Under the pieces are notes generated by a model. The model saw nothing but the letters and a program-made list of their open reading frames with translations. It ran no database searches and was not told the DNA's origin. A DNA stretch of 64,000 bases from an uncultured Ktedonobacteraceae bacterium (GTDB taxonomy: Bacteria > Chloroflexota > Ktedonobacteria > Ktedonobacterales > Ktedonobacteraceae): the NCBI GenBank assembly GCA_964250805.1, contig CAXUHG010000004.1, positions 25,730 to 89,729 on the forward strand. Reading direction: 5' to 3'. The position numbers and the translations under genes were made by a program. Positions 1-57,429 of this stretch are shown here, piece by piece; the stretch's first letter is position 1; each line of letters opens with the position of its first letter.

Positions 1-361
1 CAAGTCTTTTACACTCAATAATGAAATAACGCGCACTCCTTTTTGGATTGATTTCTGTATGATCGATAAAGCCCCAAGCAAAATCTGGAATTTTGTCTTC
101 TCGTTGTGTTCGTATTTCATCATCAGGACTGGGAGCATTCTTTGCTTCTGCTGTAGGAGGATATTCAAACCCTCCTCCTAATTCTCGTAGTTTCCTGTTC
201 GCTTCAAGTAAACAAAAAAATAATTCCCTATTTAAGAATACTTCGGACTTATCTAAGTTAGCATTCTTTTGAAGAATTAATAAAGCTTCTAAAAAGACCT
301 CTAAAACTCTTTGCTCATGCTTTTTCCAGATATTTAACCGCGATAATCGTGGTTGTTTCAT
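1..361 (-). CDS. PD-(D/E)xK nuclease-like protein; N-terminal 120 codons only, because the gene runs off the left edge
   Basis: My own translation from the ATG at 361-359: MKQPRLSRLNIWKKHEQ...EDKIPDFAWGFIDH...RYFIIECKRL. The PD ... ExK arrangement is typical of the restriction-endonuclease fold. The ATG overlaps the TGA of the upstream methylase (ATGA). The DNA is AT-rich like its neighbour. Confidence 0.5.
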   Translation of the reverse strand, partial: MKQPRLSRLNIWKKHEQRVLEVFLEALLILQKNANLDKSEVFLNRELFFCLLEANRKLRELGGGFEYPPTAEAKNAPSPDDEIRTQREDKIPDFAWGFIDHTEINPKRSARYFIIECKRL

Positions 362-3300: not shown

Positions 3301-3702
3301 AGGTTCAATTTTCTGCCAATCTTTGACATTCTTTGCAGGAGAACTATTCAAACTATAAACACGTAGTTCACCGGGAAGAGCCATAAAAAGGCATTGAGGA
3401 CGAGACATACACCATATTCGTCTAAATGTATCAAGTTGCTCTTCCAGGCTTGGCACATCCTGAAACTCATAAAAAACAACTACAGGGTCATTATTGACAA
3501 AAAATATTGACTTTACACCAACTTTTTCAGCAAGAACAAGCCAATCACCTTTTCCCAACCAATCATCATAATTAGTTGTAGAGTTGACACTTTTAGCAGC
3601 ACCTACTAAGGTACCATCCTGAAATCCAAGACTTCGGTAAGCCTCAGTTAAAAATGCATGAGCTGATTCAGGTTGTTCGTCTAACTGACTAACATTACTC
3701 AT
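358..3702 (-). CDS. Large gamma-class N6-adenine DNA methyltransferase (1114 aa; type IIG / PglX-like size and layout)
   Basis: ORF track. SAM motif I ILDPACGSGIFLV lies upstream of catalytic motif IV IVGNPPWGF. There are ~380-aa N-terminal and ~550-aa C-terminal extensions. Composition is AT-rich. Confidence 0.8.
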   Translation of the reverse strand: MSNVSQLDEQPESAHAFLTEAYRSLGFQDGTLVGAAKSVNSTTNYDDWLGKGDWLVLAEKVGVKSIFFVNNDPVVVFYEFQDVPSLEEQLDTFRRIWCMSRPQCLFMALPGELRVYSLNSSPAKNVKDWQKIEPLEVVRRAVDVATELRDYHREQIESGRLFADNRFGDIAERADRRLISDLKFVRQSLMKSGLNQEYTRHAHALIGRSIFIRYLEDRDILTPAYFEKVAENNPNWQKILSQKPEKPDLTLNLEKRRYDRVLHSKDFTYALFKKLAHDFNGDMFPQDEIEEVVVNQDHLDLIRGFLLGDVNLLQPSLFFWAYDFKIIPMELISSIYEEFYHGNNEDDKGTQYTPNVLVDFIVSQVLTEERLISNPRILDPACGSGIFLVESFRRIVRYKTQKQQKPLSSDELKQILRTQIVGIEINKEAAQVAAFSLYLALLNYLEPPDIMANKQLPNLIYKEDYPQEVNNYQILFNNNTFSLMDIEYEGLEGILTTSSRFKGRVQTKRLLESSTMLPLDTHSFDIIVGNPPWGFEEGTTREMREAQEQAQRWCEVFGWSIGDKELSQAFIARTLSLLKQGGVCGLLVSTGIFFKHQEKSQKFRHRWLEECTIKTVVNFVHVRHVFFNADAPFAFVQYEVGLPNPSHKIYYWSIKKTELIDKVQTIILSYSDLRQVKQNDIKYNETLWKVYWWGGHRDAALINTLNFNESLKQIAQTREWPTPGRGFQGFRQRAANYPSTWLKGYKELPIQFFHRYGLISDDVLKDVPEYVHRRGDRNIYSDWRLLVKRGITQAEGVDGQIEARLDYANYCFRNSIHGIRLVDTEEWERKVLIGILWSSLARYYFFMTASSWGTWHHEIHLEEVIKLPIKFTNNLELRKRIEVAVNKLQQWKPLSLNFESLTEQVEFVSLSSLEQELDEAIFDLYGLLDAERDLIRDMCKFGLDYFYNHIKSDAVKAVEYKCTSSLGVIDDLPMDRNLQNGLEAYIYTFLQVWNRELEDDGEFRWHIIYSNNAPMIAVVFTTQEKGYPLSNIPNVDEENEWQNVLKQCSEVLLRPVSKTIYTDSMVRAVTDTDILIVKRNEQRLWTRSAAREDAEATMLQAMYLPNEHVYEASK

Positions 3703-7953: not shown

Positions 7954-9024
7954 TTATAACTCGCGTTTGGCGTTGACATCGTAGCCAATCTCAGTCATAT
8001 CCGACCAGAGGTAGCTGTCTCCCAGCAATTTTAGCAGCACCCAGGGGCGTTTGGCGTCGTAGAGCAACTTTTGCTCTTTCGTAAAGGTGCTGAGAAACTC
8101 TTCGCCAACCACGTTTTTGTCCAGGCGGTCAACGACGCGCTGAATCTTCGCGGGTGTTAGATCTTTCAGGTACGGTTTCTTCGCAATGGTAGTGAGCATT
8201 GCCATCTTCAAACGATTCTTTTTGCAGTCATTGACAAACTGATCGTAACCATCAACCGCAACCCGTATATGAGTGAGTTGCTTGGAAATAGTAGTCACAG
8301 CAACCGCGACTGATTTCTCAAGCTCCTCCAAGAAGCGAAAAATGGAGTGAAAATTGTCCTTCTTGAGAAGAAAGAGGTCGTCGCCTCGGCTGATGCAATC
8401 GACGTTATTGTCAAAAATCAGCGTCGGCTCACTCACCAGATCGTATTCGTTCTCGCCGCGCCAGATAGCACCGAAGAAACGCGACTGGCTTAAAAGTTGC
8501 TTACGATTGTAGAAGCGGTAAAAGTAGACCGTATCCTGTGGATTGGTGAGCGGCTTGACTATAATCACGTAAAAGCGCAAACCATTGCTGAAGGCGGTAT
8601 CGTCCTTTCCAAACGAGAGTTTATCTTGATATGATGAAAGCGGCTGTATTTGTTTCTTGATGAACGCATAACTTTCATCCGAAGTATCAATATGCTCAAC
8701 CTCGAAGTCCTCTAGCTTGCTGTCTCCTTGATATGGATATATCGCGCGACCACCGCCCAGCCATGTTTTGCCATAACTGGTCAGAAAGTTTTGTATCTTC
8801 TCACGGAATTTTGCTTCAAGATTCTTGGAAAGGTCGAGGCGACGATATTCGAGTGCCTCTTCGTCGTGGGGCATAGCGGAGGCAAGGCAGACACTAACCT
8901 CGCTTACCTCTTTCACGATTTTGCCGTCCCGTATCTCTAGTTCGAGCGAAAAGAGGTTTTCAAAGGTCGTGCTATAGGGAGCAGTCATAAGGTTGTTAGC
9001 TCCTTCATCATACGTTGTAGACAT
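7954..9024 (-). CDS. Soluble 356-aa protein, KwaB-like (DUF4868-like) candidate
   Basis: It starts 3 nt after the stop of the upstream 4-TM gene. The middle and C-terminal segments ...LIFDNNVDCISRGDDLFLLKKDNFHSIFRF... and ...LLKLLGDSYLW... resemble my memory of DUF4868 proteins. No search was run. Confidence 0.5.
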   Translation of the reverse strand: MSTTYDEGANNLMTAPYSTTFENLFSLELEIRDGKIVKEVSEVSVCLASAMPHDEEALEYRRLDLSKNLEAKFREKIQNFLTSYGKTWLGGGRAIYPYQGDSKLEDFEVEHIDTSDESYAFIKKQIQPLSSYQDKLSFGKDDTAFSNGLRFYVIIVKPLTNPQDTVYFYRFYNRKQLLSQSRFFGAIWRGENEYDLVSEPTLIFDNNVDCISRGDDLFLLKKDNFHSIFRFLEELEKSVAVAVTTISKQLTHIRVAVDGYDQFVNDCKKNRLKMAMLTTIAKKPYLKDLTPAKIQRVVDRLDKNVVGEEFLSTFTKEQKLLYDAKRPWVLLKLLGDSYLWSDMTEIGYDVNAKREL

Positions 9025-9027
9025 TAC

Positions 9028-9540
9028 TTACTTCACCTGTAAAAATGTGGTGTCGCCGATATGTGCTACCTCTATGTGGCTGCGTAAGGCAACGCGTCGG
9101 CGCGTGAGCAGGTAGAACGAGGCATCATTATGTTCTATTGTAATTTCATAGAGATGATAGCCGAAAACATTGAGCATTGGATTGATATAGATCATATTGG
9201 AATTGACGTAAATAATCAACAAGACGGCAAAAAATACTAGCACCGCCCATACCTGCGAACTCGCCAAATCAAAGGTTACGAAAGGGAGCAGATAGCTCGT
9301 AACGTAGCTGAGAACATCACCATCATGTCGATCTAGCGAGGCGATAGACTCGTGTGATACCTGGCGACGCGGCACGATCAATAGAAAGTAGAGTATCAGA
9401 ATGATGACACCTGATATACCAACCAGCAGTATCAGCACGGCCCAAAGGAGATGTTTTTCCCATAAAAGGATGCAGAAAATCAACGCAAGCGGAAAGTAGG
9501 AGCTAATGAAGAGCAGACAACGTACAAAAAAACTAGGCAT
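9028..9540 (-). CDS. Small polytopic membrane protein (about 4 TM helices plus a soluble C-terminal tail), KwaA-like candidate
   Basis: 170 aa. Hydrophobic stretches are FFVRCLLFISSYFPLALIFCILLW, LLWAVLILLVGISGVIILILYFLLIV, VLSYVTSYLLPFVTF and VWAVLVFFAVLLIIYV. It is the first gene of the pair. Confidence 0.5.
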   Translation of the reverse strand: MPSFFVRCLLFISSYFPLALIFCILLWEKHLLWAVLILLVGISGVIILILYFLLIVPRRQVSHESIASLDRHDGDVLSYVTSYLLPFVTFDLASSQVWAVLVFFAVLLIIYVNSNMIYINPMLNVFGYHLYEITIEHNDASFYLLTRRRVALRSHIEVAHIGDTTFLQVK

Positions 9541-11123: not shown

Positions 11124-12080
11124 ATGGCAGTAAATGATGTGGTGCATGGAAATGAGTGTGGCCTTCCACTGAATGCTATTGAATGGTTAGAGACTCACCA
11201 TCAAAGTAAAGCTTACGAACGCGATCAAATGATTCGCGATCTTGCAATTAAAAAAGGCTGTTTTGTTGTCGATGCTGGTTGTGGTCCCGGTTTATGGACT
11301 CCCTTGCTTGCAAAAGCAATTGGGCCACACGGCTATATTGTGGGTGTCGATATTTCAGCGGAGGCTTTAGTGACCGCCCAAAGCCGTAGTGCCAACGGCT
11401 GGTATCGTCGCCAGGTAGAATATAAACGCGCTCTCCTCGAAGAACTGCCAGTTCCTGCAGGAAGAGCCGATTTCATTTTTAGTGCAAATGTCAGTCAGTA
11501 CCTTCCTGATCCTGTAACGACGTTTGCCGCAATGGGTCCCTATCTGGCACAGGGCGGGCGGCTCGCCATCAAAGATATCGACTTCGGTACAATGCGCTTT
11601 CACTCTCTTGATGCAGGACTCCAGGCGCGTGTGTTACAGGCACGAGAAAACTGGGAGTGCCAGCGCGTTGATAAAGGCTACACCTTTGAAGATAGCTGGG
11701 TCGGCTCAAAGCTTGCTGGCTACCTTCGTCAGGCGGGCTACGAGGATGTGCGCGAGACAGCATATCCAATCCACCGCACCGCCCCACTACCAGCAAATTT
11801 CCGCTTTTACCTGCAAGGCATTGCTGAGTGGTTTGTCAGCGAAGATGCCCCTTTGCTTTCAGACAACGATGTACGAGACTGGCTACGCAGCTTCCGCGAC
11901 GGCTCAGAGTGCGCTCTTGATAAAGTAGACTTTCAAAGCGAAGAGATCGAGTATATGGTGACAGGCACCTGGAATAAACCAGCTCCCAAACCAGTCCACT
12001 ACGTAGATATGTATATCGAGACTGCCGAAAGCGAAATAGGGGCAAACGAACAGCCATTACTATTACATGCCATTAACTAA
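11124..12080 (+). CDS. Class I SAM-dependent methyltransferase
   Basis: Motif I VVDAGCGPGLWT and post-I VGVDIS; 318 aa. Confidence 0.75.
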   Translation: MAVNDVVHGNECGLPLNAIEWLETHHQSKAYERDQMIRDLAIKKGCFVVDAGCGPGLWTPLLAKAIGPHGYIVGVDISAEALVTAQSRSANGWYRRQVEYKRALLEELPVPAGRADFIFSANVSQYLPDPVTTFAAMGPYLAQGGRLAIKDIDFGTMRFHSLDAGLQARVLQARENWECQRVDKGYTFEDSWVGSKLAGYLRQAGYEDVRETAYPIHRTAPLPANFRFYLQGIAEWFVSEDAPLLSDNDVRDWLRSFRDGSECALDKVDFQSEEIEYMVTGTWNKPAPKPVHYVDMYIETAESEIGANEQPLLLHAIN

Positions 12081-12095
12081 TTTTTTCACAAAAGG

Positions 12096-12130
12096 GAAGA
12101 GCGGGAACTTAGTGCGGCTTCCTGCTCTTC
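12096..12130. terminator. 12-bp stem (one G.T pair) with an 11-nt loop, between convergent genes
   Basis: GAAGAGCGGGAA-cttagtgcggc-TTCCTGCTCTTC. Confidence 0.45.
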
Positions 12131-12145
12131 TATCCTCTGCATAAA

Positions 12146-12376
12146 TCAGTGCGTATTATTCAATTGGTCCGCGATCATTGCAATCGCGGCATCTCCTACA
12201 ATTGCCTGTAACTGTGTATGAATCTGCCCCATATTTTCCATGCGAGCAGTGATAAAGTCATGTCTTGCGTTGCCATAGGCAAGCCCCGACATCCCACGTT
12301 GCGCCGCTTCGTATTCCGAACTAATCTGTGATAATAGCCTTGCGACCTCGCTTCGTTGCTCATTTGCTCCAAGCAT
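12146..12376 (-). CDS. Hypothetical 76-aa helical protein
   Basis: A clean ORF with host-like codon usage. I recognise no motif. Confidence 0.4.
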   Translation of the reverse strand: MLGANEQRSEVARLLSQISSEYEAAQRGMSGLAYGNARHDFITARMENMGQIHTQLQAIVGDAAIAMIADQLNNTH

Positions 12377-12760
12377 GGTCTCTTTTCCTTCCTATACTAC
12401 TTACTATACATAATCGTCAATATGTGTGCTTGCTGCCATATTCTTGTAGATACAATGTGTATCTTTTGTTTAGCAACATGTACAACACACGTTCATAGTA
12501 TGCACGAAAAGATATCTTCTTGTCTAGTGATTTGATGACCAGTTTTACACAATATCACTTTTTTTCACACAACGTTCACACTGTTACAACAATGTTATAC
12601 AAACATTCAAACAAAGTAATGTGTCTATACAAGCCCAACGAGACGTTTCTTTACAATAAGAAGCACTGCTACCCGAAAAATCAAAAGTGCAGGACAACAG
12701 ACAAAAATATGTGGTACTTTTAGGGTACGAAATATTGTTGTACAGACCTGAGAGGAGTTC

Positions 12761-13510
12761 TTGAGGATGAATATTGCGTCGGTAGCACTCGAATTATATA
12801 CGGTACGCGACGAGACGGCACGAGATTTCGCAGGTACGCTACGCAAAGTTGCGGATATAGGCTATCCGGGCGTCGAGTTTGCTGGCTATGGCAATCTCGG
12901 TGCAAAAGAGATGAAGGCATTACTTACCGAGACAGGATTACGTGCTTTTGCAACGCATGTTCGTTTAGATGCTATTGAGCAGAATTTGGCGCAGGAAATC
13001 GCGTATTGCAAGGAAATTGAGTGTCCATTGCTGATACTGCCGTCACTGCCGCGTGAGATGCACACAGCCGAGAGTTTTCGTCAACTTGCTCTCCGCCTGA
13101 ACACATTTGGGCAACAGTGTCGAGAGCAAGGTATCACCTTTGGCTACCACAATCACGACTTCGAGTTCGCGCAGCATGATGGCGAGACACTCATGAGTAT
13201 TCTGCTTTCTTCCACCGATTCATCGCTGGTCAAACTCGAACTTGATGTTTACTGGGCTGCCTATGCTGGCGTCGATCCCATAGCCCTCTTACGTCAAAAC
13301 ACTGGTCGCATTCCCATTATTCACCTCAAAGATATGACGCCTGAACACACCTTTACCGAAGTTGGAGCAGGTACGCTACCAATAAGTGAGATTATTCAGG
13401 CGGCACGTGACAGCGGAACACAGGTATTCGCGGTCGAGAACGATGCGCCCACTATTCCATCGTTGGAGAGCGCGAAACGCTCGCTAGAGAATTTACGAAA
13501 TATGGCATAA
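12761..13510 (+). CDS. Sugar phosphate isomerase/epimerase (xylose-isomerase-like TIM barrel)
   Basis: 249 aa. The pattern ...GYPGVEFAG..., ...GYHNHDFEF..., ...ELDVYW..., ...IHLKD... is typical of this fold family. An SD GAGAGGAG lies upstream. Confidence 0.75.
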   Translation: MRMNIASVALELYTVRDETARDFAGTLRKVADIGYPGVEFAGYGNLGAKEMKALLTETGLRAFATHVRLDAIEQNLAQEIAYCKEIECPLLILPSLPREMHTAESFRQLALRLNTFGQQCREQGITFGYHNHDFEFAQHDGETLMSILLSSTDSSLVKLELDVYWAAYAGVDPIALLRQNTGRIPIIHLKDMTPEHTFTEVGAGTLPISEIIQAARDSGTQVFAVENDAPTIPSLESAKRSLENLRNMA

Positions 13511-36378: not shown

Positions 36379-36408
36379 ATATTCCTCAGCCTTGATCCGA
36401 TATCTTTT

Positions 36409-36542
36409 CGTAGGGACCAGATTTATCGCGTCCGTTGCTCAATTTATTGAGCGAAATCTTTGTGAACCCTCTCCCCAAGCCGTGTTAAACGTGATCTCGC
36501 GTGATAAATCACGCAACGGACGCGATAAATCTGGTCCCTACG
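36409..36542. repeat. REPIN-like element, long form (family 1 archetype)
   Basis: 26-bp perfect terminal inverted repeats CGTAGGGACCAGATTTATCGCGTCCG / CGGACGCGATAAATCTGGTCCCTACG. They flank an 82-bp interior with sub-palindromes GCTCAATTTATTGAGC and GCGTGATAAATCACGC. Confidence 0.9.
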
Positions 36543-36564
36543 AATTGAGATAGATAGAAGCATA

Positions 36565-37206
36565 TTATGCGGGTGGAGTGAGTTCGCGCATAAGTGCCCC
36601 GATCTGACGCCGTGAACCAAACACCCAGACTGTATATTCATCGGGCAAGTCCTCAACCTCGACGCCACAGTTCATCTCGGACGCAAGCTTGCGCACGATA
36701 TCAAGAAATTGTCCGCGCTCTGGCACACTACGACTTTGCGTACTCAGCGCGAGTCGTCCGAGTCGTTCGTCGGGACTCAGAACCGCGTTTATGACCGCAT
36801 TAAGTTGCTCCATGCCAAAAATGACCTGCAATGGCGGCAAATCCTTTGCCTGTACCACCACCGAAGCCTTTTTTCCACCCACACCCTCGCTATATTCCTC
36901 CTGCTCTTGCGTCAGGTCTACATAGACCGAACGCAACTGTTCGAGAACCAGCATACGCGCCTCTTCAGGTGCATCCGAGCGCGGGTGTACATAGGCCAGC
37001 AAATTATGCTCTGGATCAGAATAGATAAATGGATTTGAGGTCGCGGCACGGCGCCCACAATTGGGACAGGTAGCGACGTTGAGCATACCGGACAGAATGG
37101 TATAGCGCAATTGTGGGTCTTGCGCGGTATTGACATATTCGTAAGTGACTGCTGGAAAAGTTGTCCCACAGGGACAGGTAAATGTATGTGTATGTGAACG
37201 TGACAT
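36565..37206 (-). CDS. CpXC-domain protein
   Basis: An N-terminal CPCG ... CPNCG pair (FTCPCGTTF...VATCPNCGRRA), matching my recollection of the CpXC family; 213 aa. Confidence 0.55.
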   Translation of the reverse strand: MSRSHTHTFTCPCGTTFPAVTYEYVNTAQDPQLRYTILSGMLNVATCPNCGRRAATSNPFIYSDPEHNLLAYVHPRSDAPEEARMLVLEQLRSVYVDLTQEQEEYSEGVGGKKASVVVQAKDLPPLQVIFGMEQLNAVINAVLSPDERLGRLALSTQSRSVPERGQFLDIVRKLASEMNCGVEVEDLPDEYTVWVFGSRRQIGALMRELTPPA

Positions 37207-37296: not shown

Positions 37297-38565
37297 TCAT
37301 CTTCTTCGCCCCTTACTCTGTGATTTCGTGGAGAAGAGAAATTTGCCGCCCTGTCGCTCGATGAAGGCTTTGAAGTGCCCGTAGAATTCGTCGCGGTCCT
37401 GCATTGTAATCACGGAAACGGCGTCCGCTGTTTCGATAGCATAGGGATAGCCACCACCAGCGATGACCTCGGCGCGTACTGCATCCATCACCGATTCGAG
37501 TACACCATCGTCGATCATCCAGCGTGGGAATTCGAGGCGTGCGGGAGAATGCTTCGAGGTTGTTTGCAGGTAGCAAAATGCGACACTCTCTCTATACGGA
37601 CCATAACTTTGCAGAATGTCGCCACGCGCACATAGCATGGCGGGTGTGCGGTCTCCCCATTGCAATTTTCCATTCCAGAGAAGCGCATCGTGAATTTTCT
37701 TGGTGTCGCGTAGCACTGATTGAGGCTTTGTTTCGTCGAGGCGCCGTAGCATCGTGATGATGTCGCGTGCATAGCTAGTGTCGATGTAGCCAATCAGCGG
37801 AATACGTAGCCGCTCCGAGGTTTCGAGCAGGGAGACTGCCGCGTTGACGTATTGCTCGCGGTACTGATTGGGCATGGTCAAGGCGAACGAGACGACCAGC
37901 GAGCCATCGAAGAAGACAACCGGACTGTGCGCGGGGTCATCTGGTTTACGCACGCTGGCAAAGTATTCCATCTGGCTACACAACGTCTCGACCTCTAACA
38001 GATGGCGGCGCATAGTCACCATCATATCAGAGTAGGGATAGCCATCCTGATCGTCCTTCGCCGCCCCCTGCTTTCCCTCGTCGGCTATGTCTTCTGGTGC
38101 CAACACCTCCATGCGTACATCCTTCGTATACGGTCGCCCTGGTTGATGTGGATTCGCAAACAGACCAACTTGTACCAGCGCGACGGGAATTGAGGCATCG
38201 CGCCACGGCATAAGCTGGCTACCATCGACGGCAAGCGTCATCACACCCTCAATACATTCCGCCCATTGGCGCGTTTGCTCATGATTGAGAAACTCGCGTC
38301 CAAAGGGAAAGATGGGGCCGGAATACTGCTGCTGCTCCGCATTCACTAACCAGCGATCAAACTCGATGCTTGGTCTGGCACCTGCTGTTAGTGTGCCTTC
38401 TGGCGGCAAGGCTGCTTCGAGTTGCTCACTGGACATATAGTCCTGATACAGCGTTTCGAGGGCATGCTGATACAACTTGAGTTGGTCGCTAAACGTGCCG
38501 TCGTAGAGCGCGAACTGGTTGCGTTTGGCGTTGAGTGCCGCCTGAAGTTTTCCTTTATGAAGCAT
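37297..38565 (-). CDS. nurA: NurA-like nuclease (422 aa)
   Basis: The start is at the ATG at 38565, which overlaps the last 11 nt of the upstream ATPase gene. The LAVDGSQLMP (catalytic Asp region) and IPLIGYIDTSYARD segments resemble NurA domain motifs. The longer track ORF (to 38712) is rejected. Confidence 0.6.
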   Translation of the reverse strand: MLHKGKLQAALNAKRNQFALYDGTFSDQLKLYQHALETLYQDYMSSEQLEAALPPEGTLTAGARPSIEFDRWLVNAEQQQYSGPIFPFGREFLNHEQTRQWAECIEGVMTLAVDGSQLMPWRDASIPVALVQVGLFANPHQPGRPYTKDVRMEVLAPEDIADEGKQGAAKDDQDGYPYSDMMVTMRRHLLEVETLCSQMEYFASVRKPDDPAHSPVVFFDGSLVVSFALTMPNQYREQYVNAAVSLLETSERLRIPLIGYIDTSYARDIITMLRRLDETKPQSVLRDTKKIHDALLWNGKLQWGDRTPAMLCARGDILQSYGPYRESVAFCYLQTTSKHSPARLEFPRWMIDDGVLESVMDAVRAEVIAGGGYPYAIETADAVSVITMQDRDEFYGHFKAFIERQGGKFLFSTKSQSKGRRR

Positions 38566-41500
38566 AGTGAAGTAGCCGTTCCTGCTGCGCCTCTTCGTCG
38601 CTGACAATGCGTGTCTCGCCATGCTCTTTCGAGAGGCGTACAATACTATCCAACCCTTGCTCGAAGGTGTCGTCGTGACTGATGACCAGCAATTGATCGA
38701 AGCCGCGCACACGCCGTATCTGTTCCGCGAGGTTCATGCGCCGTAGCTCGTCCATATTCTGCGTCGGCTCGTCGAAGAAGGCGAGATTGAGCGTCGAGAG
38801 CTTCTTGAGCAGGGCAAGGCGAATCGAGAGTGCCGCGCTCATCTGCTCACCACCGCTCAACTGTGCGAACGTGCGGTTGGTACTTTGACGACGTAGCACA
38901 ATTTCATAATCGTTCTGCCACGAAAGTTGAGCAGTGCGGTCACCCATAATCTCGCCAAAGATACGATTGGCCTCGGCAGAGATGTCGGCGAGCATCGCCT
39001 TCAAGACAAATGGTGCCGCCTCCTTGATATAGCCTCGGAACTGTATCATCATCGCGTTCAGGTCTTCGAGCGTCTGCTGCTCCTGTTGTGCCACCTTCAA
39101 TTCTTCTAGCAACGCTTCGGCCTGAGTAATCTGTCCCACAAGCCTTTCCATATCGCGCTGGTTACGATCAATCTCACCTTTTAAGGCGGCAAGATTATTT
39201 TTCAGACGCTCGACCTCTTCATGAACCGCACTCAACTCGCGCTCATTGAAGGCAGCATCGGCATCGTGAAAGGCTTGCGACGCCACTTGTAGTTGCTCTA
39301 CCGCCTGTGACGCTTTTCGCAACTGCTGTTGATAGGCACGTTCGCGTTCTGGTAGCTGGCGAGCCACATCCTCGTTTTTAAGGTAGTTCTTGTAGCCGCT
39401 TTCACTGCTCAAACGCCTTGCCTCTTGCTGAGTAATCAAGCTATCGAGTTCGCTATATGCAGCAAGTTGTGTGTCGAGTTGCGCTACCTGTTCCTGCATT
39501 TGCGTCAGGCGTTGCTCTTCGTCGTGCAACTTTTCTGTGTACAGGCTCTCTTGCTCGACAATGTGTTGTTGTGCCTTACTACGTGAACGTGGATCGTTTA
39601 GAGCTAGTAGCTCGGTCTCGGTCTGTTTGAGCAATACATCACTTCCCTTGAGTTCAGCGAGTTGTTGGCGTAGCTCGCTCAGGTCTACGTCGCCCTTCTC
39701 AATCTGTTCCTTATACGACTGCACCTGCTCGTAGAGACCAGGAAGTTCCCGTACCTGCTTATCGGCGTCTTTGCTCTCGTCATAACTTTTGCGTGTCGCG
39801 CTTATGGTGGCATCAAGCGTTTCAAGTGCAGTCAGTTCTTGTGTCAACTCCGTGATATCGGCCTCTAATCGGTCAATCTCGTTTCCAACGGGCTGCAAAT
39901 GTTCTTTATAGCTCTCACGTCTATCAACATGCATAGCAAGTTTGCCAAGCCACTCGACATACTTCTCTATCTGTTGCTCTCGTTGTACTACGGTCTGCTT
40001 CTGTTGTAGCACGCTATCAAGTTCGGCATGCTCAGTTGTCAGCAAAGTATCAAAGTATGACTCAAGGCTCACCATACCAAGTTGCTGAATGTTCAGGCAT
40101 CTCTGATGCAAGAGAGGGCATTGTCCACCAGCGGATTGCGCTCGTGACTTGACATAGCCTTCGATGTTGCCTTCGAGTTTGTTTTGACGAGCGGTCAACT
40201 CTTCGCGTTGCGCGACCAGCACAGGTTTCTCTTCGGCATCCTGGCGATGCTCCTCAATCTTCTCGATGTTGATCTCGACCTTGCGTAGTTTCTCGGCTAT
40301 CTCATCGCGGTCACGCTGTTTGCTGCTCAGGTCGTCGCGCTTCTGTTGCACCAGTTTCTGCTTATTCTTGCGCTCACTGCTCTGCACCTGCAATTGGGAA
40401 AGCGTCTCGCTCAACTCATGTACGCGCTCAGCCAACGGTTGTAGAGGCTTGATAAGAGCGATGCGCTGCTCTCGTTCGGCCTGCTGTTGTCTGTATCCGT
40501 CAATGGTGGCACGGAGGCGCGTACCCTCCTTCATGACCGTATTGTAACGCGTCACTCTGTCTCTGAGGTCGTCGCGTCTCCGTTCGAGTTCGCTCTGCTG
40601 CTCCACCAGCGTCACAAGTTCTTCGACACGCCGTCGGGCGACAGCAACTTCCTCTAAGCGTTGTTGTAAATTTCGTTGCTCGGCCTCACTTTTGGCCTTT
40701 CGGGTCTGCACCTGCCTTTGTTGGTCAAGGAGCTTGTTGCGTTGCTGCTCATCTCTGCGTAAATTAGCGAGTGCCTGTTCCGCCTGTTGATACTGCTGAA
40801 AATTTCCAAGGCTAGCGGTAACGATATCCTGCGCGGTTTGTGCCTCTTGCAACAGCTTCTCATCGCGCCCAAGCAGAAGTTGCGCGTTCGTGTGTTCCGT
40901 TTGGCTGGTATTAAAGACTTGTTTCAACTGCTCCAATTGATACTTTTGTACGTTGAGTGCTGCTAGCCGCTCTTCGTTATCTGAACGCTGCTGTAGCCAG
41001 AGATTTTCCTGTTGCTTCTGCCGTTCGTCGCGCTGGCGTGCGGTTTCGAGAGCAGTGCGCCAAGCGTCCAGTTCGCTCGTCCGAAAGGTGAGTTCGTTAA
41101 TTTTGATGTTCTGCGCCGCCACCTGCTCTTTATAGTAGTGCTGCACCTGTAGCAAATATTCGGCGGACGTTTTGTAGTCCTCGATTTGCAGCAGGGCGTC
41201 GAAGGTCTGTTTGCGTTTGCTGGGAGTCTCAAGAAAAATAGCGGTGAATGTTCCCTGTGGCACGCCAAGCGCGTCTTTGAAGAGCGACTCTAGGGGGCGT
41301 TCGCGGTCAATGCCAAAGAGGTCGTGCAGACGATCCTGCATATCTGCCCCCTGCTCAAGACGTTCGCTAGCCTCTTCATCGGTCATGAACCAGCGTGCGC
41401 CAGAGCCACAACGCCGCTCCACGATGTAGGGACGATCATCACTCCCAATCAGATGCACAACGATACGTCCGTACTTCTCGCCCTCGCGCACAAATTGATC

Positions 41501-41665
41501 CTGCTTATAAGGAAGGTGATTGAAGAGGGCATAGCCAATGGCCTCGACCAGCGTTGTCTTACCAGCACCGTTGGCTCCACTAATTGCAGTGGTGCCACGC
41601 CTGAAATCGACCTCGACCTTCTTGTAGCTCTTGATATTCTCTAACTCGACACGTGTAATGAGCAT
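38555..41665 (-). CDS. Rad50/SbcC-like SMC-type ATPase (1036 aa)
   Basis: Walker A GANGAGKTT, Q-loop GVPQG, about 700 aa of coiled coil, signature LSGGEQ, Walker B LAFFDEPTQNMD and H-loop LLVISHDD. The mid-coil has CPLLHQRC. The start is at the ATG at 41665. Confidence 0.85.
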   Translation of the reverse strand: MLITRVELENIKSYKKVEVDFRRGTTAISGANGAGKTTLVEAIGYALFNHLPYKQDQFVREGEKYGRIVVHLIGSDDRPYIVERRCGSGARWFMTDEEASERLEQGADMQDRLHDLFGIDRERPLESLFKDALGVPQGTFTAIFLETPSKRKQTFDALLQIEDYKTSAEYLLQVQHYYKEQVAAQNIKINELTFRTSELDAWRTALETARQRDERQKQQENLWLQQRSDNEERLAALNVQKYQLEQLKQVFNTSQTEHTNAQLLLGRDEKLLQEAQTAQDIVTASLGNFQQYQQAEQALANLRRDEQQRNKLLDQQRQVQTRKAKSEAEQRNLQQRLEEVAVARRRVEELVTLVEQQSELERRRDDLRDRVTRYNTVMKEGTRLRATIDGYRQQQAEREQRIALIKPLQPLAERVHELSETLSQLQVQSSERKNKQKLVQQKRDDLSSKQRDRDEIAEKLRKVEINIEKIEEHRQDAEEKPVLVAQREELTARQNKLEGNIEGYVKSRAQSAGGQCPLLHQRCLNIQQLGMVSLESYFDTLLTTEHAELDSVLQQKQTVVQREQQIEKYVEWLGKLAMHVDRRESYKEHLQPVGNEIDRLEADITELTQELTALETLDATISATRKSYDESKDADKQVRELPGLYEQVQSYKEQIEKGDVDLSELRQQLAELKGSDVLLKQTETELLALNDPRSRSKAQQHIVEQESLYTEKLHDEEQRLTQMQEQVAQLDTQLAAYSELDSLITQQEARRLSSESGYKNYLKNEDVARQLPERERAYQQQLRKASQAVEQLQVASQAFHDADAAFNERELSAVHEEVERLKNNLAALKGEIDRNQRDMERLVGQITQAEALLEELKVAQQEQQTLEDLNAMMIQFRGYIKEAAPFVLKAMLADISAEANRIFGEIMGDRTAQLSWQNDYEIVLRRQSTNRTFAQLSGGEQMSAALSIRLALLKKLSTLNLAFFDEPTQNMDELRRMNLAEQIRRVRGFDQLLVISHDDTFEQGLDSIVRLSKEHGETRIVSDEEAQQERLLHYAS

Positions 41666-41819
41666 AGGGATTCGCCTTCCCTCTCTACGACAGCATGGCG
41701 CACTACGACAGGGCTTCATGCAAAAATAAATATATTCTCCCAGTGCGCTATTCCAAAAGTGTGTATGAAAGATGGAAATACGCATGCTGATTATAACATG
41801 AATGGGGAAAATGGCAATG

Positions 41820-42404
41820 TTATAATGAAGTGTCTATTTCTTTCCGTACAAGATGTACAAAATTCGGAGCGTGTTGTGCAAGAGTATCTAGTACTTGCGT
41901 TAGGGTTCGCGCGGGGTTATGAAGTGCTTTTGCCTGCTTTATAACGGTTTGCATCATCATCTCAGGGTTAAGGTAAAATAAGTTGACGAGAAATTTGTCA
42001 ATTGTTTGTGCCTCAATCTTATACTTCACAAGAGACTCCGGCGGAAAATCTTTTATATTCTGAGTTACTATTACCTGTGCTTCAATTACTACTGCTGCTG
42101 CCAACACATGTCTATCTTTTTCATGATTAGTCATCGCTGGTATCAAAGATTGGTAATCAGTAACAGTTGCATAAGGAAAGCTTTGCCTCATCATGTCCAC
42201 AAGGTGTTGAGCTTTATCTATAGGCATACCTTTTTCAATATGATTACGCCGAACCTCTTCTAAAATGTCATCTGAAAACTGCACTCTGTATAAACCCGCA
42301 CGCGCCGCACGCAAAAGCGTATCACGTGGTGCTGCTGGGAAAAGAACACAAGCATCCAACACAGCCTTAAATGACGACATGTGTACATATGCCTCATCTT
42401 TCAA
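41820..42404 (-). CDS. PIN-domain toxin (VapC-like, long form)
   Basis: ...AVLDACVLFPAAPRDTLL... (first acidic residue), ...HEKDRHVLAAAV... . It sits downstream of an HTH antitoxin. The start is either TTG at 42404 or ATG at 42380. Composition is AT-rich. Confidence 0.7.
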   Translation of the reverse strand: MKDEAYVHMSSFKAVLDACVLFPAAPRDTLLRAARAGLYRVQFSDDILEEVRRNHIEKGMPIDKAQHLVDMMRQSFPYATVTDYQSLIPAMTNHEKDRHVLAAAVVIEAQVIVTQNIKDFPPESLVKYKIEAQTIDKFLVNLFYLNPEMMMQTVIKQAKALHNPARTLTQVLDTLAQHAPNFVHLVRKEIDTSL

Positions 42405-42419
42405 TTATTGTCACAGAAA

Positions 42420-42860
42420 TCACTCGTCATATAGACCCAACTCTTCACTCAAACGGGTAAGCTCATCAAGTTTTCGATCTTGCTCAGCCTCGTAACGCTT
42501 TTTATATTCCATAAGCGTGCCAAAACGAATACGTCTATGTGTCCCTACTACGTTAAAGGGGATTTTCCCCTCTTCAAGCAACTTGACGAAGTATGGTCGT
42601 GACACATTCAGTATATCCGCTGCTTCTTGAGTCGTCAATTCTTTGTTGATTGGCACGACACTAATAGCACGTCCACGCATCATGTGATAGATGATTTGGC
42701 GCAACACTTGAAAAACAGAGAGCGGTAACTCTATCTCTTCTCCGTCTGGTCCAATCAAGCGAGGACGACGCTTCTCTTGCTTCAACGCATCTTCGATTTT
42801 CTTGAGTGCAGGGCGCTCACTTTCACTAGCCGTGATTGGCTCTCGTTCTATTACCGACAT
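42420..42860 (-). CDS. Excisionase-family (MerR-like HTH_17) DNA-binding antitoxin
   Basis: ...LTTQEAADILNVSRPYFVKLLEEGKIPFNVVGTHRRIRF... ; 146 aa, located upstream of the PIN gene. Confidence 0.7.
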   Translation of the reverse strand: MSVIEREPITASESERPALKKIEDALKQEKRRPRLIGPDGEEIELPLSVFQVLRQIIYHMMRGRAISVVPINKELTTQEAADILNVSRPYFVKLLEEGKIPFNVVGTHRRIRFGTLMEYKKRYEAEQDRKLDELTRLSEELGLYDE

Positions 42861-43107
42861 GTGAAACTCCTCTTTGTCTTGTTACTCTAATGTTATGTAT
42901 GCTGTGTATATCTTGTATGCTATGTATATTATGAATAATACACGACAATCGAAATAAACGCAATATCCGAAATAAACGAAACAGGAATCGTCTGGATAAC
43001 GCACCATACCCAAAATCAGTAGAGTGCAACTATTGATACTTAGAACCGTTGAGAATAGTAAGTATTATGAATGCTACTGATTCACCAAACCTGATTCGAC
43101 GATTTTT

Positions 43108-43240
43108 CGTAGGGGCCACATTTATGGCGTCCACCGCTCAATTCATTGAGCGAAATCCTTGTGAACTCCTTCTACAAGACGTATCAGGCATAATCTCGCG
43201 CGATAAATCGCACACGGACGCGATAAATCTGGTCCCTACG
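43108..43240. repeat. REPIN-like element, long form, with a degenerate left arm
   Basis: The left arm is CGTAGGGGCCACATTTATGGCGTCCA (6 changes) and the right arm is perfect: CGGACGCGATAAATCTGGTCCCTACG. The interior is collinear with the 36409 copy. Confidence 0.85.
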
Positions 43241-43284
43241 AATGATTGGTGAACGATTACATAGAAATGATGGGAGAGGTATGA

Positions 43285-45525: not shown

Positions 45526-46128
45526 TTACGCGAAAAACTGCTGTACCTGCACGGGAAAATTCGGTACGACTCGTGATGGTAGAGTTTGTTCACCGCTAAA
45601 AACCCCAGATGAGCGATATACTCCGTCCTCTAAGAGCAGCACTTCTATTGTATGCGCCTTTGGCTCGGCAATCCAATACTCTTGTACGCCTGCTTGAGAA
45701 TAGGCTACGTATTTTCGATGCCTGTCATGAATGGCTGTGCTGGGAGAAGAAATCTCTATAGCGAGGTCAGGGGCACCAATCACACGCGCTTCTGTGATTT
45801 TTCCCAGGTTATCGTTAAGAAGCACAAACACGTCAGGTTGGACGACAACGTTATATGCCACTTCAACATCTCTCGGTCCCATATACACATGCCCTAAGCC
45901 AGCCAAGCGTACATGTACAGTCAGGTAATAGAAAAACCAGCCAGTAGCATCCTGATGGGGGCCTGTAGGTGCAGGAGCCATGTTGTAAAGCACTCCATTT
46001 ACAATTTCATATCTCTTCCCATCATCAGGAAGTGCTGCATAATCGTCATAGGTCCAATGACCTTGCTTTGGGCCTATAACCCAATCAGCAGGAGTGACTA
46101 TATCATCTTGGCTGTGTGTTGTTGCCAT
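45526..46128 (-). CDS. Uma2-family (DUF820) PD-(D/E)xK endonuclease-like protein
   Basis: ...YEIVNGVLYNMAPAPTGPHQ..., ...VQPDVFV..., ...APDLAIEISSPST... . The start is at the ATG at 46128. Confidence 0.75.
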   Translation of the reverse strand: MATTHSQDDIVTPADWVIGPKQGHWTYDDYAALPDDGKRYEIVNGVLYNMAPAPTGPHQDATGWFFYYLTVHVRLAGLGHVYMGPRDVEVAYNVVVQPDVFVLLNDNLGKITEARVIGAPDLAIEISSPSTAIHDRHRKYVAYSQAGVQEYWIAEPKAHTIEVLLLEDGVYRSSGVFSGEQTLPSRVVPNFPVQVQQFFA

Positions 46129-46367
46129 TATAGCAATCCTGCCTTTCGTGTAGTTCTCTATCAGAAGGGATAGTGGTTTTCTGCACATAGTATATCATGC
46201 TCTGGAATGAGAAAACACTTATGCATTGTTATATATAATGAAGGGGAGCCAATCAGGAATGGCTGGTCGCTTTAGTACACAATTGGCTCTGGTAGCGTCC
46301 TCTATTTACGTGCTAAGCTTTACATCAACAAGCATAACAATTTTTTGTATACGTACCCATATACATT

Positions 46368-46499
46368 CGTAGGGACCAGATTTATCGCGTCCGTTACGTG
46401 ATTTATCACATGAGATCATTTTGATACATCCTATATATACATAGTAAGGATTTCGCGCAATGAATTGCGCCTACGGACGCGATAAATCTGGTCCCTACG
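46368..46499. repeat. REPIN-like element, long form, with its interior inverted relative to the other copies
   Basis: It has the same perfect 26-bp termini. The interior modules (CGTGATTTATCACA ... GCGCAATGAATTGCGC) appear in reverse-complement order. Confidence 0.9.
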
Positions 46500-46540
46500 A
46501 AACGAAACATGTTAGATGCTACAGCAGGAGAGAAGAACTT

Positions 46541-49321: not shown

Positions 49322-51256
49322 ATGCAACATGTGATCACTGACGATCTGAACGCTCTGCTGGCTGCCCTTCCGCCGAGCATTCGCGAGGCGGTCTATCGGC
49401 TCGAAAACCGAAGCGAACTGCTGGAGATCGTAATGGACCTCGGACGTATTGCCGAGGGCCGCTTCCCAGATGGGGAGGTGATCCTTAGCTCTGAGCCTGT
49501 GACCTCGGCTGACCTCGAATATGTGGTTGAGCACATCGGTGAGTTTGGCGACGATAACCGTGCAGGTATCGAACGCACACTGCACCGCATTAGCGCATTA
49601 CGCAACCGCAAAGGCAAAGTAGTCGGCTTGACCTGTCGTATTGGGCGTGCGGTCCTTGGCAGTATCGCCCTGATTCGCGACATCGTTGAGCAGGGTCAAT
49701 CAATTTTAATACTTGGTCGCCCAGGTGTGGGTAAAACCACTCTGTTGCGTGAAATAGCTCGCGTCCTCGCGGACGAAGCCAATAAACGTGTTGTTGTCGT
49801 CGATACCTCGAACGAGATTGCGGGCGATGGTGATATCCCCCACTCCGGCATAGGGCGTGCGCGTCGTATGCAGGTGGCTCGCACCGTCGAGCAGCACGCA
49901 GTCATGATCGAGGCTGTGCAGAACCATATGCCACAGGTCATCGTGATCGACGAGATCGGCACCGAATTGGAGGCACTTGCAGCCCGTACTATCGCGGAAC
50001 GTGGCGTACAGTTAGTCGCAACCGCGCACGGTAACTCGCTGGGCAACCTGCTGGTCAATCCGACGCTCTCCGACCTCATCGGTGGCATCCAGACCGTGAC
50101 GCTCGGTGACGAAGAGGCGCGTCGTCGTCACACACAGAAGACGATCAACGAGCGCAAATCCGCCCCGACCTTCGATGTGGTGGTGGAGCAGCAAAGCTGG
50201 GACGAGGCGGTCGTCCACCGCGACGTTGCCGATACTATTGACAACATGCTGCGTGGTCAAGCCACCGTCGCCGAAGAGCGCACACGCAACGAGGAGACGG
50301 GTGAGGTTAGCGTGCGCCGTATCACCACTGGCGGCATGGATGTGCCCTCATGGGGTAGCGGCGGACTGGGTGGACCTGATCAGGGCTTCACACCACGCAC
50401 CTTCGAGCGACCAGAACGCCCTGAACGCTCGAACCGTAATGGCGGACGAGGCGGCAACTGGAACCAATATCGTTCGAGTGGAAGTTCACAGGATGTGCGT
50501 TCAAACGATGCAGCTATAACACGCGGCGAACGCTTTCGTGGACGAGGAGCAGAGTCTCAGCAATTTCAGCCACAGATGAGAACGCTGGCTCCAACCGGTA
50601 CGGCACCATCGGAGGTGAAGCAAATTGGTAGCACCGCCCTTATCACGACGGAACGCCCCTTCCTCGAAGAGGGCATCTACCAGCCTATCGAAGCCGAGAT
50701 GCCGGTTCCGCTGATGAAGTCGATGCGCGTCTACCCGTTTGGTGTAAACCGCGACCGACTGGCTGATGCGGCGCGAACATTGCGCGTTCCCGTTGTTATC
50801 ACAGCGAACGAACGCGAGGCCGATGCGATCATCAGCATTAAAAACTACTACAAACGTCAACCAGAGCGTTTGCAGCAAGCTGAGCAGGATCGCAAGATGA
50901 TTATCATCCTGAAAAACAACACGGTCACACAGATGCAGCATGCGCTGGCTCGCCTCTTCGACATCCCGCTCACCACAACAGAGAGTGATGGCGAAGGCGA
51001 CGAGTCAGACGAAGGAGGGTCTCCAAACGACTTGTCTAATCAAGAGTTTGATGACCCAACGAAGAAGGCTATGCTAGAGACGGAGGACGCCATTCATCAA
51101 GTCTTGAACAAGGGCTTGACAACGGCTGAACTCGCCCCTGCCAACGCCTACATTCGCCGCTTGCAGCATCAAATGGCGACGCGCTACAACCTGATTTCAA
51201 GGAGTCGAGGCAAGGAACCACAAAGAAGAGTGAAGATATTCCGCTCGCGGGATTAA
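49322..51256 (+). CDS. SpoIIIAA/Ycf45-like AAA ATPase with a C-terminal R3H nucleic-acid-binding domain
   Basis: Walker [17 protein letters not shown], ...[18 protein letters not shown]..., Walker B VIVIDEIG, a disordered G/R-rich linker, and the C-terminus ...[30 protein letters not shown]. Confidence 0.75.
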
Positions 51257-57249: not shown

Positions 57250-57275
57250 TACATAATCTTGATGTGGCAGTTTTT

Positions 57276-57410
57276 CGTAGGGACCAGATTTATCGCGTCC
57301 GCTGTTCAATTTATTGAGCGAGATCGTGATGAACCCTGTCTATAAGCTGTATCAAACACGATCTCGCGTGATAAATCACGCTCTCGGACGCGATAAATCT
57401 GGTCCCTACG
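57276..57410. repeat. REPIN-like element, long form
   Basis: Perfect 26-bp termini. The interior carries an 11-bp nested stem GCGAGATCGTG/CACGATCTCGC plus the TCAATTTATTGA and CGTGATAAATCACG sub-palindromes. Confidence 0.9.
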
Positions 57411-57429
57411 AAAATAGGTTGACTATGTA

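Follow-up and report, generated by a model that had tools for sequence, protein, structure and literature searches.

The subject of this analysis is a pair of adjacent minus-strand genes in a 64-kb stretch of DNA from an uncultured Ktedonobacteraceae bacterium (contig CAXUHG010000004.1); the whole stretch is referred to as the window. The upstream gene, at 38555..41665, encodes a Rad50-like ABC ATPase of 1036 amino acids (aa), here called Rad50L. Its most plausible start is the ATG at 41665, and its stop codon is at 38555-38557. The downstream gene, at 37297..38565 (ATG at 38565, stop at 37297), encodes a 422-aa nuclease of the NurA family. Both come from the list of open reading frames (ORFs), and the NurA assignment also draws on Pfam. 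The two genes overlap by 11 nucleotides (nt) at 38555..38565 (ATGCTTCATAA), as read directly from the sequence. The junction reads ...CAC TAT GCT TCA TAA, and NurA starts with ATG CTT CAT AAA in the +1 frame. This overlap of stop and start suggests that the two proteins are made in a coupled manner, and translational coupling of the genes is likely. The ORF list and the junction sequence agree with the arrangement given in an initial annotation of this DNA, and the head, apex and NurA motifs quoted there were all located in the two proteins. The GC content of the pair is 50-55%, similar to the window average. A consensus scan of the 154-nt spacer upstream of Rad50L found a promoter-like site on the minus strand, TTGCCA-16-TGnTATAAT (41790..41817; 11/12 matches). 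It is a weak indication of a promoter because the total site count in the scan is not above the shuffled expectation.

Rad50L consists of an N-lobe, a predicted coiled coil of about 700 aa with a central hook, and a C-lobe. The bipartite ABC head is complete. Motif location on the minus strand places Walker A (GANGAGKT) at aa 30-37 (41555..41578), the Q-loop region (GVPQG) at aa 134-138 (41252..41266), the ABC signature motif LSGGEQ at aa 936-941 (38843..38860), Walker B with the D-loop (LAFFDEPTQNMD) at aa 961-972 (38750..38785), and the H-loop (VISHDD) at aa 994-999 (38669..38686). The head regions are the best-conserved part of the protein, and the ~700 aa between the two lobes are of low conservation. 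Profile searches yield Pfam matches to SMC_N, AAA_23 and SbcC_Walker_B. The best NCBIfam match is archaeal Rad50, PRK03918 (E=6.6e-49; 166.6 bits against a cut-off of 700), whereas bacterial SbcC, TIGR00618, is matched at 6e-14 (50.9 bits against a cut-off of 478.5). Neither equivalog cut-off is reached. The best sequence matches in the PDB are the Rad50 heads of M. jannaschii and P. furiosus, at 3e-24. Pfam, NCBIfam and the PDB matches all accord with the Rad50/SbcC-like character first assigned to this protein, and by these scores it is nearer to archaeal Rad50 than to SbcC.

The apex of the coiled coil is unusual. The CxxC zinc hook of Rad50 has been called 'absolutely conserved' in a review (PMC7752040). 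In place of this hook, Rad50L has CPLLHQRC (CPx5C) at aa 516-523 of 1036 (40097..40120, minus strand), which falls at the exact midpoint of the protein. An alignment of the extractable full-length family members reveals CPx5C in 58 of 58 and an apex CxxC in none; the family consensus, likewise at the protein midpoint, is G-G-x-C-P-[LF]-[LN]-x-x-x-C-[LQ]-[NH]-I. A single-sequence AlphaFold2 (AF2) model of aa 440-600 places CPx5C in a loop between two long helices, with low confidence (predicted local distance difference test, pLDDT, 69.7). Haloarchaeal homologues retain a canonical CPTC hook and a weak match to the Pfam family Rad50_zn_hook. On this alignment, the CPx5C apex is a trait of the Chloroflexota Rad50L subfamily. 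It is also found in a Thermobaculum-type Rad50L that has an adjacent Mre11 gene (see below), and it is therefore not a sign of Mre11 loss. A Rad50 subfamily with CPx5C in place of CxxC provides a natural test of the requirements of hook geometry and is of modest interest by itself.

In Pfam, the downstream protein is assigned to PF09376 with E=9e-34 and 117.5 bits (cut-off 21), over profile positions 3-254 of 254. Its residues were placed by motif location and alignment. The motif LAVDGSQ (aa 111-117; 38215..38235, minus strand) contains D114, the putative catalytic aspartate, and both D114 and S116 are invariant across 57 diverse NurA homologues. E191 (37993-37995, minus) is also invariant across diverse homologues. 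D220, in the motif FFDGS (37900..37914, minus), and D381, in the motif ETAD (37423-37434, minus), are nearly so, and the catalytic role of these three residues is putative. The motif GYIDTSYARD lies at aa 259-268. An AF2 model calculated from a 57-sequence alignment has a pLDDT of 94.5 and a predicted template modelling (TM) score, pTM, of 0.93. The top Foldseek match of this model in the PDB is P. furiosus NurA (3TAZ/3TAI; probability 1.00), and the next matches are EndoV and PIWI, which have RNase-H-like folds. The TM-score to the solved NurA structures is just 0.34-0.37, as would be expected of a divergent member, and neither a PDB sequence search nor a family-profile search with the protein gave a real match. 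These features mark the window protein as a divergent but genuine member of the NurA family, and the Pfam and fold matches corroborate its first description as NurA-type.

Close homologues of the pair come from Ktedonobacteraceae genomes and metagenome-assembled genomes. A total of 93 Ktedonobacterales loci were collected, 12 of them from a genome scan with the single NurA protein (all close relatives). The metagenome loci are the best 80 matches to a 20-sequence alignment query, all at least 68% identical, and are suited to conservation counts, not to judging phylogenetic breadth. Informative loci are the 83 with at least 400 nt upstream of NurA, and in 82 of these Rad50L is directly upstream of NurA on the same strand. 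The sole exception, L021, has a 537-aa Ser/Thr-kinase-like ORF (121-1731) preceding NurA and no Rad50L. The identical 11-nt overlap is present in 45 of the 82 loci, and other overlaps are present in 6; spacers of 0-50 nt occur in 14, and 3 have an insertion of more than 400 nt. Both genes are intact in all of the ~90 loci. The ratio of nonsynonymous to synonymous substitution rates (dN/dS) against close relatives is 0.06-0.08 for Rad50L and 0.03-0.07 for NurA. In Dictyobacter alpinus the gene order is Lgt–Rad50L–NurA–CpXC–MoaB-like. The recurrence of an SMC-type ATPase next to NurA, which the initial annotation had put forward as something to survey, thus extends through 82 of 83 Ktedonobacterales loci and also to L104, a locus of a more distant lineage. 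Rad50L–NurA is a core, vertically inherited locus and not a mobile island. Its synteny with housekeeping genes, ordinary GC content and strong purifying selection argue against an accessory island, and the accessory or anti-mobile-element context initially proposed for it is not borne out.

For more distant NurA homologues, of 30-50% identity, the contigs that encode them were identified. The most complete bacterial arrangement is on a Thermobaculum-type contig, L101, whose HerA protein is identical to that of Thermobaculum terrenum ATCC BAA-798. Its five genes are co-directional, with spacers of 1-21 nt, and are ordered Metallophos/Mre11 (435 aa), Rad50L (1021 aa), NurA (396 aa), DUF8166 (201 aa) and DUF87/HerA (560 aa). 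The best match of the phosphoesterase is archaeal Mre11 (3e-31), and HerA matches the archaeal 'DSB repair helicase HerA' model (DSB, double-strand break) at 9e-61 against 5e-29 for anti-phage HerA models. The window Rad50L is 30% identical to its Thermobaculum-type counterpart over 1-1021 (E ~1e-116), and length and hook motif are common to both; for the window NurA, full-length identity is 38% (E ~1e-97). The L101 cassette lies immediately upstream of dnaA (11814-13184), and hence next to a probable replication origin.

The same order is found in haloarchaea. In a search of the 72,556 plasmid records of PLSDB, the only matches of NurA and of Rad50L from the window are the same four haloarchaeal megaplasmids, those of Natrinema zhouii (NZ_CP084885), halophilic archaeon DL31 (CP002989), Halobaculum marinum and Halorussus salilacus. 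The Thermobaculum HerA matches these four and, more weakly, one of M. jannaschii. The annotation was read for two of the four plasmids, NZ_CP084885 and CP002989, and both have metallophosphoesterase–SMC ATPase–NurA–hypothetical–DUF87, the same order as in the Thermobaculum-type contig. Each of the five haloarchaeal proteins is homologous to its Thermobaculum counterpart at 26-41% identity, with E ~1e-24 for the DUF8166-like protein. These clusters differ from the window locus in being archaeal and plasmid-borne, and in having an SMC protein of ~905 aa with the canonical CPTC hook. They are also preceded by an 'ATP-binding protein' gene and a gene for a 748-aa DEAD/DEAH helicase with an Lhr-type winged helix (L105, NZ_CP084885, 179398-196570; L106, CP002989), and cassette, helicase and ATPase may form a seven-gene unit.

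In the complete clusters closest to the window pair, Mre11 is 4 nt upstream of the Rad50L orthologue and HerA is downstream. Overall, HerA accompanies NurA in L101, L098, L105 and L106, and Mre11 is directly upstream of Rad50L in L101, L105 and L106. The remaining contigs carry parts of the cassette. L098 has Rad50L (cut by the contig end), NurA, an 81-aa ORF, DUF8166 and HerA; L104 has a stand-alone Rad50L–NurA pair 9 nt apart; in L100, TPR and membrane genes are inserted between Rad50L and NurA; and L103 has a NurA–DUF8166 pair. DUF8166–HerA pairs are present in L102 and L107 and are found in Litorilinea and Caldilineaceae. NurA is without these partners in L097, L099 and L015. Scattering of the cassette into sub-modules is therefore common in Chloroflexota. 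The family label DUF8166 was taken from the precomputed Pfam annotation. In bacteria and haloarchaea alike, this protein of ~200 aa is always encoded between NurA and HerA or adjoining one of them (L101, 9394-9999; L098, 4316-4912; L102, 9262-9867; L103, 11240-11833; L107, 6859-7476; L105, 9253-9918; L106, 9067-9768). DUF8166 is probably a fifth subunit of the cassette.

From gene order and similarity, the window pair can be identified as the second and third genes of a five-gene cassette of archaeal type, a relative of the herA–mre11–rad50–nurA operon. That operon serves DSB end resection in thermophilic archaea (Constantinesco et al. 2004, cited in PMC5448004; PMC3326311; PMC5715905), and in it, as in the window, nurA immediately follows rad50. 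Rad50L and the Mre11 and HerA of the cassette have their best matches in archaeal DSB-repair families, and NurA shares the Pfam domain and the fold. The differences are several. The window locus holds two of the four genes, and the full cassette is ordered mre11–rad50–nurA–DUF8166–herA, with the additional 200-aa DUF8166 protein. All members score far below the NCBIfam equivalog cut-offs (e.g. 166 vs 700 bits). The window hook is CPx5C rather than CxxC, the window NurA has no sequence match to a solved NurA, and the host belongs to a mesophilic-type soil bacterium lineage. Bacterial NurA–HerA pairs are reported from Deinococcus radiodurans and Thermus, and four functions are clustered as nurA–hepA–sbcD–sbcC in Oceanithermus profundus (PMC5448004). 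These resemble the window locus in having an archaeal-type NurA in a bacterium; in the window, however, NurA is coupled to a Rad50-like gene and not to HerA, and the ATPase is Rad50-like rather than SbcC-like. Thermus NurA is ~293 aa long, compared with 422 aa for the window NurA, which has an N-terminal extension of ~110 aa.

The system is thus an archaeal-type Mre11–Rad50–NurA–HerA end-resection cassette, reduced at this locus to its rad50–nurA core and with an unusual hook. In a search of the accessible literature, neither the Mre11–Rad50–NurA–DUF8166–HerA cassette of bacteria and haloarchaea nor the Rad50L–NurA pair was found described.

The weak SbcC similarity (TIGR00618, 6e-14), together with the fact that SbcD is not at the locus, would also be expected of a decayed sbcCD, in which an SbcC left over after the loss of SbcD lies by chance beside an unrelated nuclease. 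Rad50L does resemble bacterial SbcCD in its ABC head motifs, in a hook that begins with Cys-Pro and in its long, here predicted, coiled coil. Its second hook cysteine, however, is at +7 rather than +3, and its best matches are to archaeal Rad50 and not to SbcC. Across ~90 loci the two reading frames are intact, their dN/dS is 0.03-0.08, and NurA is again the neighbour in distant lineages and in archaea. The conservation data rule out such decay, which the initial annotation had named as a reading that would overturn its own, and we regard it as extremely improbable.

The initial annotation had also reported that no Mre11/SbcD or HerA gene is present in the 64-kb window, and three approaches concur. 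The phosphoesterase motif GNH[DE] is in no ORF of the window, and tblastn of the window with the cognate Mre11, DUF8166 and HerA gave no match. The only other ORF with a Walker A motif, at 49322-51256 on the plus strand, was considered as a HerA candidate and rejected as an R3H/SpoIIIAA-type ATPase. Its product, an ATPase of 644 aa, combines SpoIIIAA-like, PTPase-like and R3H domains and is unrelated to Rad50L–NurA.

Our preferred reading, which we rate slightly above an even chance, is that the vertically inherited rad50–nurA operon is the core of an archaeal-type end-processing cassette, Mre11–Rad50–NurA–DUF8166–HerA, that is scattered in most Chloroflexota. The cassette order is intact in the Thermobaculum-type contig and on the haloarchaeal megaplasmids, and the window locus has just the two middle genes. 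From the archaeal homologue system (PMC3326311, PMC5715905, PMC7752040) we infer the biochemical activities of Rad50L and NurA and their role in DNA repair. A Rad50-like dimer would bind ATP through its intact ABC head, and the ~700-aa coiled coil with its two-cysteine CPx5C apex would recognise and tether DNA ends. NurA, a predicted metal-dependent nuclease of RNase-H fold that would be co-produced with Rad50L, would degrade the 5' strand or nick DNA at the ends. In the complete cassette, Mre11 would open blocked ends, and a HerA hexamer, with DUF8166, would feed DNA into NurA. In Ktedonobacterales the partner genes are off the locus and most likely elsewhere in the genome, as with the solo DUF8166–HerA pairs in Caldilineae. 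If the partners are encoded elsewhere, the window locus simply belongs to a known repair system whose operon has been split in an ordinary way. Of all the links in the five-gene cassette, the rad50–nurA junction is the most stable in this large bacterial order, and it persists without the other three genes nearby.

Several points weigh against this reading. No Mre11, DUF8166 or HerA homologue was found within ±10 kb in the ~90 Ktedonobacterial loci or in the 64-kb window, and the presence of the cassette partners elsewhere in Ktedonobacterial genomes, which we consider most likely, is an assumption made by analogy. Ktedonobacteria-labelled HerA is absent among the best 120 matches of searches with L098-HerA and with a nine-sequence HerA profile; these lists are filled by Caldilineae, Anaerolineae and Thermobaculum, and because they are saturated by other Chloroflexota the result is uninformative and not negative. 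The window NurA model has a TM-score of only 0.34-0.37 to the solved NurA structures. Finally, no junction of the cassette is kept as tightly as that of rad50 and nurA (overlap in 51 of 82 loci), which also fits a direct Rad50–NurA partnership.

Such a partnership could amount to an autonomous machine, in which Rad50L works with NurA as its only dedicated nuclease, without Mre11 or HerA, in Ktedonobacterales and in L104. NurA would then dock on the Rad50 head or the coiled coil's base and cut DNA clamped by the ATPase. The pair stands alone in ~90 Ktedonobacterial loci, with no Mre11 or HerA within ±10 kb, and again in the distant L104; the stop/start overlap in 51 of 82 loci suggests stoichiometric co-production; and both genes are under strong purifying selection. 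There is also precedent, as SMC and ABC ATPases are paired with unrelated nucleases in Lamassu, Wadjet, PARIS and Gabija. However, the closest complete clusters do have Mre11 4 nt upstream of Rad50L and HerA downstream, and the Rad50L family features, including the hook, are identical with and without an adjacent Mre11. Because the cassette is commonly scattered in Chloroflexota, the lack of a gene at the locus says little about whether the genome lacks it. We consider an autonomous machine possible but rather unlikely. The initial annotation had gone further and suggested that NurA has replaced Mre11/SbcD as the nuclease arm. The conserved pair stands, but the replacement is weakened by the Mre11 and HerA genes that flank the Thermobaculum-type and haloarchaeal orthologues; since relatives carry both in the same cassette, the pair is not clearly a new machine of that kind. 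The more specific possibility, that Ktedonobacterales and, independently, L104 lost the cognate Mre11 and HerA, leaving the CPx5C Rad50 and NurA as a self-contained DNA-end machine, is unlikely, and slightly less favoured than the general one. To our knowledge, Rad50 is thought always to act with Mre11/SbcD and NurA always with HerA. If the loss did occur, it would mean a Rad50 that functions without any Mre11-family phosphoesterase.

The pairing of an SMC/ABC ATPase gene with a nuclease gene is also what is seen in the defence systems Lamassu (LmuB/LmuA), Wadjet, PARIS and Gabija, and the pair or the whole cassette could sense and destroy the ends of foreign DNA in a Lamassu- or Wadjet-like manner. 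Rad50L has partial PADLOC matches to LmuB (4e-28) and mad3 (1e-27), the haloarchaeal cassette resides on megaplasmids beside an Lhr-like DEAD/DEAH helicase and another ATPase, and a toxin–antitoxin-like PIN/HTH gene pair adjoins Rad50L in this genome. On the other hand, the Rad50L matches reflect generic similarity of SMC heads and coiled coils, PADLOC has no model that NurA matches, and the window pair is not accompanied by LmuA/LmuC, JetABD or Toprim partners. Homologues are absent from the 50,697 phage records searched and, among the 72,556 plasmid records, from every bacterial plasmid. The pair occupies a chromosomal core locus with order-wide synteny among housekeeping genes and typical GC content, and the cassette HerA scores better on the DSB-repair HerA model than on the anti-phage models. 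The PIN/HTH pair is unique to this genome, and the window's genuine defence genes, an Eco57I-type restriction-modification gene and a KwaB-like gene, are 28-40 kb away in AT-rich DNA. A defence role of the bacterial locus is unlikely; for the whole cassette the idea retains some support, since haloarchaea carry it on plasmids. Taken for the pair or the cassette, we judge anti-mobile-element defence to be decidedly improbable.

The genes and repeats next to the pair were examined as possible further components. The CpXC gene (PF14353, by profile search) at 36565-37206 starts 90 nt downstream of NurA, and the initial annotation had considered it a possible third member of the module. Across loci, CpXC always travels with a MoaB-like gene, and its distance from NurA varies from 59 to 8132 nt. 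None of the distant clusters contains it, and it is missing in 14 loci whose downstream sequence is long enough. CpXC was rejected as a third component on account of this variable spacing and its absence from the distant clusters, and the three-gene module falls with it.

On the other side of the pair, a profile search identified the toxin–antitoxin-like genes, PIN_3 and HTH_17, at 41820-42860 on the minus strand, in a stretch of 41.7% GC. They are found in none of the ~90 related loci. In the closest relative, L001, a YfhO-like membrane gene abuts Rad50L directly; in the window, the PIN/HTH pair is a recent insertion that separates these two genes. Because it is confined to this genome, it was rejected as part of the system. 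Insertions of a comparable kind are found in Caldilineaceae, where DUF8166 and HerA are split in L107 (7491-9981) and L108 by small toxin–antitoxin-like DUF4160/DUF2442 and DUF433/DUF5615 genes and a phosphodiesterase; these echo the PIN/HTH insertion beside the window Rad50L.

The repeats flanking the locus belong to a palindromic element that resembles a miniature inverted-repeat transposable element (MITE). Four intergenic copies of ~140-175 nt are present, at 36381-36556, 43080-43244, 46354-46505 and 57274-57412. The element has 29-nt termini (TTCGTAGGGACCAGATTTATCGCGTCCGT), with 7 arm matches in the window against 0 expected. The repeats were rejected as transposon ends, as the MITE-like element is dispersed and synteny is conserved. 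The AT-rich PIN/HTH neighbour and the two flanking repeats (36381-36556 and 43080-43244) are therefore present as initially described, but their relevance to function is not upheld, and they are incidental.

Other genes of the window touch on defence or nucleic acid cleavage. The first 4 kb have a GC content of 35-37%, clearly lower than the remainder, and contain a gene for a fused restriction-modification enzyme of 1114 aa (358-3702, minus strand) with Eco57I, N6_Mtase and MmeI methylase domains; this region is probably a horizontally acquired defence island. A KwaB-like protein (PF16162, 1e-11) is encoded directly downstream of a 170-aa hydrophobic ORF (7954-9024 and 9028-9540, both on the minus strand), and the two look like a Kiwa-type defence pair. 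A putative endonuclease of the Uma2 family, unrelated to Rad50L–NurA, is encoded at 45526-46188 on the minus strand.

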